From Bacillales bacterium UBA2289 (GTDB taxonomy: Bacteria; Bacillota_I; Bacilli_A; Izemoplasmatales; Hujiaoplasmataceae), in NCBI GenBank assembly GCA_002345505.1, contig DDWJ01000034.1, positions 23,747 to 87,746 on the forward strand: a DNA stretch of 64,000 nt, read 5' to 3'. Every line of letters starts with the position of its first letter. Within the stretch, counting starts at the first letter, position 1. Below are positions 1,144 through 6,612 of the stretch, piece by piece. The notes beneath the pieces are model-generated. The model made no database searches and had not been told where the DNA came from. It worked only from the letters and a program-made list of their open reading frames with translations. Position numbers and translations under genes: made by a program.

Positions 1144-2391
1144 CTATTTTTTTAATGTTCTTTTCCTTCTTTCCAATTCTTTCGGTTCTAGAGAAATCAT
1201 TTTTCCTGCTAATAACCCGCTAACACCATTAACATTTTCATACTTTTCTTTGTTGATATAGTTTTGTGGTTCTGAATATGTAGAAATAACCCCTTCATAA
1301 TTTCTTAAAACGATTTTACCAGGAGCTTGTGAAATTACATAATTTGGCATTACTGGAATTTTACCTCCGCCTCCCGGAGCGTCCACAACGAAAGTTGGAA
1401 CACAATATCCTGAGGTATGTCCTCTCAGACCTTCAATAATTTCAATACCCTTAGAAACAGGGGTTCTAAAATGCTCTATACCTAAAGACAAATCACATTG
1501 ATAGATATAGTATGGTCTAACTCTTATATATGCTAATCTTTGAACTAGTTTTTTCATAACTTCAACTGAGTCATTAACACCTTTTAACAAAACTGATTGA
1601 TTGCCTAATGGAACTCCAGCATTTGCTAAACGATCTATCGCGGCCTTTGATTCCATGGTAATCTCATCATAATGATTAAAATGGGTATTCAACCATATTG
1701 GATGATACTTTTTCAACATATCTACGAATTCTTGAGTAATTCTTTGTGGCAAAACAACTGGAGTTCTGGTTCCTAAACGAATTATTTCTACATGTTCAAT
1801 TTCTCTTAATCTTTTGATAATGTCTTCCAAAATTTCATCACTTACTAATAAAGCGTCTCCACCAGAAAGCAATACATCTCTAATTTCTTCATTTTGTCTA
1901 ATATACTCAATTGCTAAATCTATTCTATCTTGTGGCATTTTTTGATCTTTTTGACCAGCAAATCTTCTTCTTGTACAATGTCTACAGTACATAGAACACA
2001 TATCCGTAATCAAAAACAATACTCTATCTGGATAACGATGTGTTAATCCCGGAACAGGTGAATCAGTATCTTCAGCTAATGGATCTAACATATCATTTTC
2101 CCCAACGACCATCTCATAAACGCTTGGGATGGCTTGCTTTCTAATTGGGCAATTAGGGTCATCAGTATTAATTAATGTTAAATAGTAAGGAGTTATCGCC
2201 ATTCTGAATTTTGACAAAACACTTGTAATATCATTTCGTTCTTCTTCAGTCAATTTAATATATTTATCAAGATCATCAACATTTTTAATTCTGTTTCTTA
2301 CCTGCCAACGCCAATCTTGCCAATCAGAATCTAAAACACCCGGGAAATACTTCTTCTTTCTCAATAAATATGTGTCATTAGTGACTTTCAT
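1144..2391 (-). CDS. kamA: L-lysine 2,3-aminomutase (radical SAM/PLP)
   Basis: 415 aa. Carries the radical-SAM cluster motif CSMYCRHCTRR, a PGGGGK motif and the typical KamA length. It sits among kdd, kce and kamD. Confidence 0.95.
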   Translation of the reverse strand: MKVTNDTYLLRKKKYFPGVLDSDWQDWRWQVRNRIKNVDDLDKYIKLTEEERNDITSVLSKFRMAITPYYLTLINTDDPNCPIRKQAIPSVYEMVVGENDMLDPLAEDTDSPVPGLTHRYPDRVLFLITDMCSMYCRHCTRRRFAGQKDQKMPQDRIDLAIEYIRQNEEIRDVLLSGGDALLVSDEILEDIIKRLREIEHVEIIRLGTRTPVVLPQRITQEFVDMLKKYHPIWLNTHFNHYDEITMESKAAIDRLANAGVPLGNQSVLLKGVNDSVEVMKKLVQRLAYIRVRPYYIYQCDLSLGIEHFRTPVSKGIEIIEGLRGHTSGYCVPTFVVDAPGGGGKIPVMPNYVISQAPGKIVLRNYEGVISTYSEPQNYINKEKYENVNGVSGLLAGKMISLEPKELERRKRTLKK

Positions 2392-3428
2392 TATTTATCA
2401 CTTCCGTATCTCTCTTTAAAAATCTCATATAATTCTTTTGATTCTCTTAAAAGATTCAAAGTGAATTCTGCATGATCTTTTGTATAACCATTACCTATTA
2501 TCATCAAAGCTTCAGATGCTATACCTTCTGCACCTAAAGCCGCTTTTGTGAATGATGTTGCCATAGAGAAAAAGTAAATTGTTCCTGCCGATTTTGTTGG
2601 TAAAATTGAAGTCATTTCCGTATTAGGAACATTTACAACATTAATTGTCACATCAACCATTTCTGGTAAAACGTCTTTAACTTTATTATATATTTCCATT
2701 GGTTTTGTAGCATCGCCAACGATAATGTAATCACAAACATTAAGCTTTTCTAAATCATGGCGATGTCTATCAGAATGAATCAATCCGATTACCTTACCAT
2801 TTTTACCTGCACTTTTTCTTGCTTGATAAGCACAAAGTATTCCAGATTTACCACCAGCACCTAATATTAATACTGAATCATCTTTTTTAACAAGTTTTTC
2901 TACTTGTGCTGCAGCTCCTGCTACATCTAAAGCAGAAAGAACTATATTAGCTGGCAAGTCATTAGGGATTACAGCATAAATTCCGGTTTCAAAAAGTATA
3001 GCTTGACCGATGATATTTACCTGATCTTTAGATAGATCTATACTTACGATTTTTTCTATTTTTAAAGGTGTTAGAGATAAAGAAACTAATGATGTAATTT
3101 TGTCCCCAGGCTTTAAATTAAGATGAAGATTTTTTCCTACTTCTTTTATTCTTCCTAAAAACATACCACCGCTTCCAGTAACTGGGTTTTGCATCTTACC
3201 CTTATTGTTTACGATGTTTTCAATCATTTCTTTCATTTTATCAATATCACTATTGCATGCATTTTTAATTTGTGTGAATGATGCTGAATCAATATTTAAA
3301 GTATCTACGTCTACTAATATTTCGTTGTCATAACATACCATCTCATTGTTAATTTTATCAGCTGTTTGTGGTAATGTTCCTTCTGGATAAATAACTCTAT
3401 GTGTTCCGTACTTGCATAATTCTTTCAT
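2391..3428 (-). CDS. kdd: L-erythro-3,5-diaminohexanoate dehydrogenase
   Basis: 345 aa with a Rossmann motif ILGAGGKSG. Length and position between kce and kamA match lysine-fermentation clusters. Its stop shares one nucleotide with the kamA start (TAATG). Confidence 0.8.
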   Translation of the reverse strand: MKELCKYGTHRVIYPEGTLPQTADKINNEMVCYDNEILVDVDTLNIDSASFTQIKNACNSDIDKMKEMIENIVNNKGKMQNPVTGSGGMFLGRIKEVGKNLHLNLKPGDKITSLVSLSLTPLKIEKIVSIDLSKDQVNIIGQAILFETGIYAVIPNDLPANIVLSALDVAGAAAQVEKLVKKDDSVLILGAGGKSGILCAYQARKSAGKNGKVIGLIHSDRHRHDLEKLNVCDYIIVGDATKPMEIYNKVKDVLPEMVDVTINVVNVPNTEMTSILPTKSAGTIYFFSMATSFTKAALGAEGIASEALMIIGNGYTKDHAEFTLNLLRESKELYEIFKERYGSDK

Positions 3429-3429
3429 C

Positions 3430-4257
3430 TTATTTTTCTCCCATTCCTAATATAATTCTCGCTTCTTTTGGAGTTGCGATCTCACGATTGTATTTTTTTG
3501 CGATTTGTACTACTTTTTCCACTAACTCAGCATTAGACTTTGCTAATACTCCTTTTTCTATATAAATATTATCTTCTAATCCAACTCTAACGTGTCCGCC
3601 ATGTTTAATTGAAAGTTCCGCTAATGAAAACTCATATCTTCCAATACCGGCGACACTGTATGTTGCGTCAATAGGTAAACTTTCTTTTAAGAAAATAAAA
3701 TCTCTTTCTTCACCTGTCATGCCACCATTTACTCCCAAAACAAAACTATAATGCAGGTGACCTTTAATAATACCTTTTTTTATCAATCGAATTGTTGTAT
3801 CAATATGACCTTTTTCAAAACATTCCATCTCATATCTTACATTCAATTCATTCATCTTATTAGCAAAATATATTATATCGTTTTCTGTATTTACAAAAAT
3901 TTCATCTCCGCCAAAATTTAAAGTTCCGCAATCTAAAGTTGCCATTTCCGGTTTAATATTTAAAACATCAGATCTTTCTTCTCTAGACATACCAACAGCC
4001 CCACCAGTTGAAACTTGAATGATTAACTCAGGGCATCGTTTTTTAATAGCATTATGAATTTCTTGATATCTTTCTTTATTTTGCGTTGGCTTTCCATCGT
4101 CGAATCTTGCATGCAAGTGAATAACTGAAGCTCCAGCTTTATAAGCAGCCTCAGCAGCCTCAACCATTTCTTGAACCGTATAAGGAACTGATGGATTATG
4201 CTCTTTTGTAACCTCGGCTCCTGATATTGCGCAAGTGATAATCAATTTATCCTTCAT
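3430..4257 (-). CDS. kce: 3-keto-5-aminohexanoate cleavage enzyme (BKACE/DUF849)
   Basis: [19 protein letters not shown]...VIHLHAR...[11 protein letters not shown]...[14 protein letters not shown] closely resembles the characterised Kce as I recall it. I chose the ATG at 4257 because an AAGGAG RBS lies 9 nt upstream. The ORF track extends the frame to 4293. Confidence 0.85.
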
Positions 4258-4633
4258 ATCTTTGTAACTCCTTAGGAACAATACATGTTCCAACTGCTTT
4301 TGTAGTAAGAATTCGTTCTTCTAAAATATCACAAGCACTAGGAGAAATATCAGGTCTAGCCGCTATAATTTTATAACAATAAAATTCCATTTTTCTTGAT
4401 GTATTTCCTGCTTCAATAATTTCCGCTTCAATTTCAACAAAATCGCCAGCATAAACAGGCGCTAAAAAATCAACTGACTCATAAGCTCTAAATAAACCTT
4501 CATCACCATCTAGCCTAATCAAAAGTTCTGTAGCCGCATCACCAAATAATGCTAAAATCTTAGCTCCATCAACCAAATTGCCTCCGTAATGAGCATCTTG
4601 ATTTGACATTCTCATTTTTAAAATTGTCTTCAT
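4247..4633 (-). CDS. kal: 3-aminobutyryl-CoA ammonia-lyase-like hotdog-fold protein
   Basis: 128 aa, the small size expected of a hotdog-fold protein. It lies between the CoA-transferase genes and kce, as kal does in known lysine-fermentation clusters. Confidence 0.7.
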
Positions 4634-4636
4634 ATC

Positions 4637-5278
4637 TTATACTCCTTTCATTCTCTCTACATTATTTATAATCAAATCCGCTTCTGTAGCGTTAACAACA
4701 TCTTCAATTGTGTAATCAGGATGCACTTCTAATAAATGTAATCCATCTTTTTCGACTCTCATCACAGCCATCTCAGTAACAATCATGTTTGCTTGATGAG
4801 CGGCAGTTAATGGCAATCTGCATTTTCTTAAAACTTTTGACTGTCCTTTATTTGTATGTGTTAAAGCAATTATTACTTTCTTAGCACCAGTAACCAAATC
4901 CATAGCTCCACCCATACCTGGAACCTTCTTACCCGGTATTATCCATGACGCTATTGAACCTTCTTGATCAACCTCTAAAGCTCCCAAAACAGTAACATCA
5001 ATATGTCCACCTCGAATAAAAGTAAATGATGTTATTGAATCAATAAAAGCTCCACCTATAAGTATTGTTGCTTTCATTCCTCCAGCATTAACTATATTTG
5101 TTTCTTCATCAGTCAAAGGACCTAAACCAATAATCCCATTCTCTGCTTGAAAAGTAACAAGCTTGTCTTTTGGCACATAATCAGCAACAAGCGTTGGAAT
5201 ACCTATGCCTAGATTTACTAAATCCCCATCTTTTAATTCAAGGGCTATTCTTGAAGCAATAATTTCTTTTTCATTCAT
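4637..5278 (-). CDS. atoA: 3-oxoacid/acetoacetate CoA-transferase subunit B
   Basis: Contains the catalytic-Glu motif [12 protein letters not shown] and has the typical length of about 215 aa. The ATG at 5278 overlaps the atoD stop (AATGAATGA). An alternative GTG start lies at 5287. Confidence 0.85.
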
Positions 5279-5924
5279 TGTCTTCACCTACCAATATATA
5301 ATCAACAAAAGGATATGGAGTAATAACGTTCTCAGGATCAATAACATCAACTGACTCAAACGGCTCAACAACAACCAAATCAGCTGCAGTCGCCATTACC
5401 GGATTAAAATTTCTCATTGTTTGAGAATATTTAAGATTTCCGTATTTGTCGTTAATTGCACCACCAATTAAAGCTAAATCAGCTCGCAAAGGTTCTTCCA
5501 AAAGGTATTTATTCCCCTGAACCTCAATAATTCTTTTACCCTCTTCAACAATTGTATCAAGTCCAGTAGGAGTTAAAACTCCACCTAAACCCGCTCCATA
5601 TGATCTAATTCTTTCCGCAAGCGTGCCTTGAGGAACAAGTTCAACTTCTATATGACCTTCTTGCATCAATTTGCCTACATAAGGATTTGTTCCAATATGA
5701 GAAGCAATTAATCTTTTTACTTGATTGTTGACAATTAACTTACCTACACCTTTATCTTCGTATCCACCGTCGTTACAAATGATAGTTAAGTCCTTTACTT
5801 TTGATTCAACAACATAATCAATCAGTTTTTCTGGTGTTCCATTTGTTAAAAAGCCACCTACTGATACACTCATACCATCTTTCAACAAATCAATAAATTG
5901 ATTTTTAGTTATATATCCTCTCAT
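5271..5924 (-). CDS. atoD: 3-oxoacid/acetoacetate CoA-transferase subunit A
   Basis: 217 aa with the subunit A signature SVGGF..NGTPE...LIASHIG. It is paired with the subunit B gene. Confidence 0.85.
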
Positions 5925-5927
5925 ATC

Positions 5928-6350
5928 TCAAACCTTTCTTGGAGGCATTATCTCCGCTTCTCCAATTATGACTACTTCTTCATTTTGATTTTTTGCTAAG
6001 CAATCAAAAGTAACTCGATTTCTTTCTAAATTGATTTCTTTAACTGTTACAATAGCTGTAATTTCATCGCCAAAATATACAGGTTTTGTAAACTTCAAAG
6101 ATTGCTTAGTATAAATGCTTCCTAAACCTGGCAGTTGAACACCGAATAGCGAACTAAATAATGATCCCACCAGCATTCCATGAACAATCTGTTGCTTAAA
6201 CATTGTTTTTTTAGCATATTCAGGGTCTACATGCGCTGGATTATGATCAGTAGAAATACGTGCGAAATCTAAAACATCAGACTCATTAAAAATTTTTCTT
6301 GTTTCAGCCATATCGCCAATTTTGATTAGATCAATTGTTAAATTATTCAT
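5928..6350 (-). CDS. MaoC-like (R)-specific enoyl-CoA hydratase/dehydratase
   Basis: 140 aa with the hotdog hydratase motif ISTDHNPAHVDPEYAKKTMFKQQIVHGML. An AGGAGG RBS lies upstream. It is the first gene after the riboswitch. Confidence 0.8.
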   Translation of the reverse strand: MNNLTIDLIKIGDMAETRKIFNESDVLDFARISTDHNPAHVDPEYAKKTMFKQQIVHGMLVGSLFSSLFGVQLPGLGSIYTKQSLKFTKPVYFGDEITAIVTVKEINLERNRVTFDCLAKNQNEEVVIIGEAEIMPPRKV

Positions 6351-6370
6351 TTTTTCCTCCTAAAAATATA

Positions 6371-6407
6371 ATAAAAAAAGCTATTATATTATAAAAATAT
6401 AACAGCT
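6371..6407 (-). terminator. Riboswitch expression-platform intrinsic terminator
   Basis: 12-bp stem AGCUGUUAUAUU/AAUAUAAUAGCU (one G-U pair), loop UUUAU, followed by a U-run. The 5' arm contains the P1 3' strand CUGU. Confidence 0.8.
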
Positions 6408-6563
6408 CTCCATTTGCATAAATGGCAGTATTTAACCTGTATGTCTAAATACCAAGATTTTGATTTATAGACTAATCAAATCTTTCGGCGAAATACTCCT
6501 TCTTAAATCTTTATCCGTCCAAAATAAAAAATTAGATTTAATACCAATATTTCGCGCCTCTGT
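6402..6563 (-). promoter_or_regulatory. Lysine riboswitch (L-box) aptamer
   Basis: On the minus strand the five-helix L-box layout can be read directly. P1: ACAG (overlapping AGAGGCGC) pairs with CUGU after GGAGAG. P2: GGCGCGAAAUA/UAUUUCGCC. P2b: UUAAAUCU/AGAUUUAA. Junction: GCCGAAAG. P3: GAUUUGAUU/AAUCAAAAUC. Then UGG. P4: UAUUUA/UAAAUA. Then CUGCC. P5: CCAUUU/AAAUGG. Confidence 0.85.
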
Positions 6564-6583
6564 GTTGATTTAGTTACACAGTC

Positions 6584-6612
6584 ATTATACTTAAAAATGT
6601 AAGCGTTGTCAA
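6584..6612 (-). promoter_or_regulatory. Consensus sigma-A promoter of the lysine-fermentation operon
   Basis: On the minus strand: TTGACA, 17 nt, TATAAT. It lies about 20 nt upstream of the L-box. Confidence 0.7.

Follow-up and report, generated by a model that had tools for sequence, protein, structure and literature searches.

A predicted lysine-ON riboswitch on a lysine-fermentation operon of an Izemoplasmatales-type bacterium

Eight open reading frames lie on the minus strand, 3' of a lysine riboswitch, in the 64 kb stretch of DNA analysed here (the window). The first gene, at 5928–6350, encodes a MaoC-like (R)-specific enoyl-CoA hydratase and is followed by the genes for the A and B subunits of a CoA-transferase of the AtoD/AtoA type (4637–5924). 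The other five products exceed the NCBIfam equivalog cutoffs. They are Kal, the 3-aminobutyryl-CoA ammonia lyase (4247–4633; equivalog NF052388, 183.8 bits against a cutoff of 160), Kce, the 3-keto-5-aminohexanoate cleavage enzyme (3430–4293; NF052387, 418.8 bits against 382), Kdd, the L-erythro-3,5-diaminohexanoate dehydrogenase (2391–3428; NF052381, 251 bits against 200), KamA, the lysine 2,3-aminomutase (1144–2391; TIGR03820, 610 bits against 525), and KamB, the reactivase subunit of lysine 5,6-aminomutase (158–1135; NF052386). The lysine-catabolic operon that an earlier note on this DNA had placed downstream of the riboswitch is thus confirmed at the equivalog level by Kal, Kce, Kdd, KamA and KamB. 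The Kce ORF as listed begins with a TTG at 4293 and shares 47 nt with the end of kal (4247–4293). The family match of Kce starts at residue 16, and an internal ATG at residue 13 is probably the likelier start. Fused Kal-Kce proteins are also known, as the NCBIfam family NF052389.

The operon crosses the edge of the window. KamD and KamE lie past this edge and are present in the sister locus L001, whose genome is 92% identical in DNA to the window over the shared 4.7 kb. At 4565–11997 of L001 the operon runs on past kamB with KamD and KamE, the alpha and beta subunits of lysine 5,6-aminomutase, followed by an adenosyltransferase of the PduO type. A short gap separates these genes from those for GlmS, GlmL and GlmE (glutamate mutase) and for methylaspartate ammonia-lyase, so that this Izemoplasmatales-like genome has two adjoining B12-dependent pathways of amino-acid fermentation. 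L001 carries the name 'Tenericutes bacterium HGW-Tenericutes-5', and the proteins closest to the Kdd of the window bear names such as Candidatus Izemoplasmatales and Mycoplasmatota. By these names the host is a free-living, A-T-rich relative of the Mollicutes and not a Fusobacterium or a Clostridium.

Between 6640 and 6340 the minus strand contains, in this order, a promoter, a leader of about 13 nt, the aptamer, a hairpin, a U-run, the sequence AGGAGG at 6361–6356 and the ATG at 6350. The promoter is a perfect sigma-70 promoter, TTGACA-17-TATAAT, at 6612–6584 (12/12 matches), and it lies where a consensus promoter had been proposed. Its -35 box TTGACA (6607–6612) is invariant in the 12 aligned leaders, and its -10 box TATAAT (6584–6589) is conserved in the aligned leaders. 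Judging from the spacing, transcription of the operon would start near 6577, about 13 nt 5' of helix P1. Promoter-like matches are fewer in this region than expected (5 versus 8.2 in shuffles), and one of them, a 10/12 match within the terminator (6412–6383), was rejected as a chance match in A-T-rich sequence.

The promoter also carries a candidate cre-like operator, TGACAACGCTTACA, at 6598–6611, which overlaps the -35 box and the spacer. The consensus of the Firmicute cre, the operator of CcpA, is TGWNANCGNTNWCA (Weickert and Chambliss). As in Firmicute cre/CcpA elements, the 14-nt TGACAACGCTTACA fits TGWNANCGNTNWCA and overlaps the promoter, which is the usual position for repression, although its likeness to these elements is partly due to the -35 hexamer. 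The site at 6598–6611 is the single match to TGWNANCGNTNWCA in the whole window. In 1.23 Mb of fetched loci the pattern has 12 matches, 9 of which are at the equivalent promoter position, and the chance expectation is about 0.0007 per 70-nt window. The 12 aligned leaders conserve TTGACA[AG]CG[CT]TT[AT]CA, that is, past the -35 box, while their flanks vary; conservation of the promoter region is restricted to this cre-like/-35 block and the -10 box. The 14-mer TGACA[AG]CG[CT]TT[AT]CA is also found on the promoters of L003, L006, L008, L010, L013, L014, L015, L018 and L030. A regex search of the window and of the 80 fetched kdd loci found no gene for a LacI-type HTH regulator, which makes a global regulator likelier than a local one.

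The lysine riboswitch aptamer (L-box, RF00168) with helices P1 to P5 is encoded at 6395–6570 on the minus strand. The match to RF00168 runs from 6570 to 6395, covers model positions 1–182 of 182 and scores 75.1 bits (E 8.4e-18) against a gathering score of 30; RF00168 is the only Rfam family matched in the window. The RNAalifold consensus of seven orthologous aptamers recovered P1 to P5, with compensatory changes in 32 of 50 pairs. The earlier note had described a complete five-helix L-box, and both the full-length match and the RNAalifold consensus bear this out. The junction strands of the aptamer, AGAGGCGC, GCCGAAAG, UGG, CUG and GGAGAGC, all fit the consensus. The whole junction set of lysine aptamers (AGAGGNGC, GCCGAA, UGG, CUG and GGAGNGC) is present in the window and is invariant or nearly so in the aptamer alignment. 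P1 is short, as the note had also stated (about 4 bp). It consists of four standard pairs only, between ACAG (6563–6560) and CUGU (6405–6402), and the two positions beyond them are flagged as non-canonical by Rfam. The 5' strand (6560–6563, minus strand) covaries with the 3' strand, as seen in GUGG/CCAC in L017 and AUAG/CUAU in L029. An anti-P1 hairpin, CUGUGU (6581–6576) with ACACAG, was considered and rejected; CUGUGU lies mostly 5' of the inferred start, and the pairing is unconserved beyond L003.

A terminator hairpin follows directly. It has the form AGCUGUUAUAUU-UUUAU-AAUAUAAUAGCU, with 12 bp and a 5-nt loop, at 6379–6407 on the minus strand, and folding, shuffles and covariation support it. 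The U-run at 6373–6378 has six U, or seven counting the last base of the stem. By itself the 12-bp hairpin has a folding energy of -11.3 kcal/mol. When G-U and A-U pairs extend it into the U-run, it reaches -15.5 kcal/mol (z = -5.1), and none of 200 dinucleotide shuffles folds as stably as this extended hairpin. A simple terminator scanner missed the hairpin because the scanner requires at least three G-C pairs and this weak, A-U-rich stem has two. A6407-G6406, with which GGAGAG ends, opens the 5' arm of the terminator, and CUGU lies wholly within this arm; the spacer between aptamer and terminator is zero. Junction J5/1 (GGAGAG, 6411–6406) and the P1 3' strand (CUGU, 6405–6402), at 6402–6411 of the minus strand, are thus common to aptamer and terminator. 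Since the 5' arm contains the P1 3' strand, P1 and the terminator cannot coexist. All of these points had been read from the DNA before, namely the 12-bp terminator with its U-run and without a spacer, its overlap with GGAGAG and P1, and the lack of room for a separate antiterminator, and they hold up: with a spacer of zero, there is no separate antiterminator. Translational control was rejected as a candidate, since neither conformer pairs the ribosome-binding site AGGAGG (6356–6361, minus strand) and there is no anti-SD sequence; with the site free in both states, no translational component is seen.

To compare orthologous leaders we used 80 kdd loci, one genome per species. The custom covariance model R1, built from seven aptamers found with Rfam, was run on all 80 loci. 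R1 identified the aptamer in 15 of the 80, always on the operon strand and directly 5' of the operon; the leading gene encodes a MaoC-like protein in 13 loci and Kal in two. The loci that bear it belong to Izemoplasmatales, Acholeplasmataceae, Vallitalea, a 'Christensenella' MAG with 61% G+C and two contigs labelled Bacteroidales, and the G+C content of these lineages ranges from 25% to 61%. Apart from L012, described below, 64 kdd loci are left, mostly of Bacteroidales and some of Clostridia, and in these the R1 search found no aptamer within reach. The window and the 15 aptamer-bearing loci make up 16 leaders, and in all 16 a hairpin with a U-run is located on the P1 3' strand, straight after the aptamer. 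All four P1 3' nucleotides and one to six junction nucleotides are within the stem in 14 of the 16; the stem of L030 takes in CUG of its CUGG, three of the four. Twelve of the 13 leaders with a scored P1-overlapping hairpin have at least five U within the 9 nt that follow the predicted stem, and a U-run is present both in L030, which is not among the 13, and in L017, where the hairpin was mis-picked. Pairs of the terminator were counted on a MAFFT alignment made without reference to any structure. For the 12 terminator pairs, 87.9% of cells are paired, and the share is 28–61% once the partners are shifted by one to three columns. Seven of the 12 pairs have changed on both sides, and none of 500 shuffles matches the covariation score. 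Across orthologues, then, the overlap of P1 and terminator is kept and the stem covaries.

We also modelled the energetics of the switch, using transcripts that ended just 3' of the U-run and comparing the best conformer in which P1 was forced with the terminator conformer. In the 16 leaders the terminator conformer beats the best P1-forced conformer by 6.7–14.1 kcal/mol. With P1 forced, the leftover downstream hairpin has 0 to -6.9 kcal/mol in 15 of the 16 leaders, and -1.2 kcal/mol in the window. The mutual exclusivity of P1 and terminator put forward earlier agrees with this collapse of the terminator in 15 of 16 leaders. In transcripts of increasing length, the minimum-energy structure contains P1, at a probability of 0.62–0.76, when the transcript ends at 6402; this probability is 0.1–0.4 when it ends at 6382, and 0 when the 3' arm is complete. 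The models thus indicate that P1 and terminator are mutually exclusive, that the aptamer can form first, and that the terminator wins without extra stabilisation. In the nearest-neighbour model alone the terminator always wins, P1 having only four pairs, and the ON state depends on energy from the ligand and from tertiary structure, which is outside this model. The short decision window and the weak P1 suggest that the switch is probably under kinetic control and probably responds to abundant lysine only. It may be speculated that the short P1 sets the threshold at high lysine.

Some leaders and loci depart from this pattern. In L017 the terminator overlaps P1 by 2 nt only, and a hairpin of -12.6 kcal/mol stays when P1 is forced. 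This leader, from an uncultured Mollicutes MAG (L017:1174–1240), is directly 5' of kal and has a G-C-rich terminator and weak mutual exclusivity, and its aptamer is the most divergent in sequence of the set. L029 of Vallitalea maricola (L029:597–805) has a two-hairpin platform, the first hairpin being on the P1 3' strand. The second terminator-like hairpin (14 bp) persists in both modelled states. It was considered whether the inner part of hairpin 1 acts as an antiterminator of hairpin 2, and constrained folding gave no support for it. In this locus 188 nt separate the aptamer from kal, with about 140 nt of further leader before kal. No lysine aptamer was found in L012 (L012:640–1000, a Bacilli MAG), where a plain promoter and a ribosome-binding site are directly before the first gene; the order MaoC-AtoDA-Kal-Kce-Kdd-KamA-KamB is kept there. 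In L006 and L007, contigs labelled 'uncultured Bacteroidales', the operon genes are ordered as in the Izemoplasmatales type, the promoter is Firmicute-style, the lysine riboswitch is present, and Kdd shares about 70% identity with the Kdd of the window. Genuine Bacteroidales kdd loci have a different gene order and no aptamer. For L006 and L007, mis-binning is the probable cause, or else horizontal transfer. Many Bacteroidota loci (L033, L034, L036, L040, L043, L044, L047, L048, L058, L060, L065, L070 and L072) have two kdd paralogues in tandem, and their atoA is located about 4–6 kb downstream, apart from atoD.

We consider it very likely that this canonical lysine riboswitch is a transcriptional ON switch of the lysine-fermentation operon, because the terminator is built on the P1 3' strand, no antiterminator is present and the operon degrades lysine. 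Lysine binding itself and the direction of the response are inferred from this arrangement. The same ON reading was the main proposal of the earlier note; the overlap in 16 of 16 leaders, the covariation of the stem and the predicted collapse of the terminator with P1 forced in 15 of 16 now support it. The mechanism would be as follows. RNA would be made from about 13 nt 5' of P1, and the aptamer would fold during synthesis, with P1 (ACAG/CUGU) and GGAGAG doubling as the base of the terminator 5' arm. When lysine is absent, the terminator 3' arm, emerging about 12 to 25 nt later, would displace the 4-bp P1, and transcription would end in the U-run at about 6378–6373. When lysine is bound in the five-way junction, P1 and J5/1 would be locked, the hairpin would be reduced to a 6-bp all-A-U remnant and RNA polymerase would read through. 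This read-through would lead to expression of maoC-atoDA-kal-kce-kdd-kamA-kamB(-kamDE).

A different ligand is conceivable on the same platform, such as beta-lysine or an intermediate of the pathway. Variant riboswitch classes with altered ligands are known in other families, and the GGAGAG junction does vary in a few orthologues, being GAUGAG in L013, L014 and L024 and GAAGCG in L006. However, the window aptamer scores 75 bits with the standard lysine model and all of its junction strands fit, and lysine is the natural inducer of an operon in which lysine 2,3-aminomutase catalyses the first committed step. We thus regard a ligand other than L-lysine as very unlikely.

It is likewise highly improbable that the aptamer is a relic or nearly inert, leaving the hairpin as a constitutive attenuator and control to the promoter, for example through the cre-like operator. 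A full-length aptamer has been kept with compensatory changes across lineages of 25% to 61% G+C, where a relic would decay, and a constitutive terminator of 12 to 15 bp before an 11-gene operon would be pointless without relief. The observations that could be taken for such a relic are the P1 of only 4 bp, the secondary-structure model that always favours the terminator, the same operon without an aptamer in L012 and the conserved operator-like site on the promoter. An OFF switch like that of lysC, in which lysine would promote termination or block translation through an unseen pairing, is hardly credible even though every natural lysine riboswitch characterised by experiment is a repressor (PMC10974012). 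The P1 3' strand is part of the terminator 5' arm, so the two structures exclude each other, and no spacer is left to hold an antiterminator. Forcing P1 leaves no terminator-grade hairpin in 15 of 16 leaders. The ribosome-binding site is free in both states and no anti-SD sequence exists, and repression of a lysine-degrading operon by lysine would be physiologically senseless.

The lysine-ON reading can be compared with known systems. The five-helix aptamer and the conserved junction sequences (RF00168) are shared with the lysC OFF switches of B. subtilis and E. coli. In lysC a separate antiterminator or sequestering element inverts the logic and lysine represses, whereas the present switch has a P1 of only 4 bp that the terminator overlaps directly, and it serves a catabolic operon. 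The arrangement resembles the pbuE (ydhL) adenine and gcvT glycine ON riboswitches, in which the 3' strand of the closing helix is also inside the terminator 5' arm, the ligand prevents the terminator and control is probably kinetic. It differs from them in ligand and aptamer class; the lysine aptamer, with about 165 nt from one P1 strand to the other, is far larger, and it has a shorter P1. Lysine also activates expression through a lysine aptamer in engineered riboswitches (Zhou and Zeng 2015; Lys-A variants, PMC10974012), but these were selected from libraries of OFF switches and act on translation, whereas the switch described here is natural and acts on a transcription terminator. Engineering work treats natural lysine riboswitches as repressors and evolves activators by selection (PMC10974012).

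ON wiring has been described for this riboswitch class before. According to Barrick and Breaker 2007 (PMC2258182), who cite Rodionov 2003 on this point, some lysine riboswitches are ON switches that bury pieces of the terminator stem. Mukherjee 2017 (PMC5584792) places lysine riboswitches before catabolic kal and kce genes and, citing Serganov and Patel 2009, states that these genes are positively regulated. These texts confirm the comparative-genomic hints mentioned in the earlier note. Lysine-ON LYS elements before lysine-catabolic genes are predicted in Thermoanaerobacter tengcongensis, Fusobacterium nucleatum and Clostridium sticklandii (Rodionov 2003, cited in PMC2258182; PMC5584792). Compared with those predicted switches by their published description, the window has the same aptamer class, the same pathway (kal, kce, kamA) and the same terminator-burying ON logic. 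Going by that description, the differences are that the hosts here are Mollicute relatives of the Izemoplasmatales/Acholeplasmataceae type, that the operon here opens with maoC-atoDA and theirs with kal or a pspF-type regulator, and that a conserved cre-like operator is located on the promoter here. No experimental test of a natural catabolic lysine-ON switch was found in the literature searched, which covers few subscription journals. In summary, ON wiring before lysine-catabolic genes has been predicted since 2003, and the window is a well-supported new example of it, in a lineage (Izemoplasmatales-type) where a lysine-ON switch had not been noted. Current understanding is unchanged by the locus, and nothing is overturned.

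The cre-like site on the promoter suggests, as a reading of the sequence, dual control by catabolite repression and by lysine. If the site is real, the operon would require two conditions, absence of a preferred sugar and presence of lysine. We tentatively propose, as a possibility held with somewhat less than even confidence, that leader and promoter together form a conserved two-input gate of free-living Mollicute relatives (Izemoplasmatales and Acholeplasmataceae), made of a CcpA-type operator and a minimal lysine-ON switch. In such a gate the operator over the -35 box would close the promoter when sugars are available, and the 4-bp P1 with its decision window of about 25 nt would allow elongation only with abundant lysine. 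If true, experimental validation would for the first time have a natural lysine-ON set to work on, and the 16 natural variants of this set would offer a ready-made lysine-activated part of the kind that is now obtained by selection.

For a first biochemical characterisation of a lysine-ON switch from nature, this locus offers good material. The window and its 15 relatives are natural variants of one compact ON platform that differ in G+C (25%–61%) and in terminator strength, and such a set is suited to testing how a five-helix aptamer with a 4-bp P1 outcompetes a terminator during transcription. For the organisms themselves, the gene content of these loci documents fermentation of lysine, and of glutamate next to it, in Izemoplasmatales-type bacteria, with the lysine genes under predicted RNA control.
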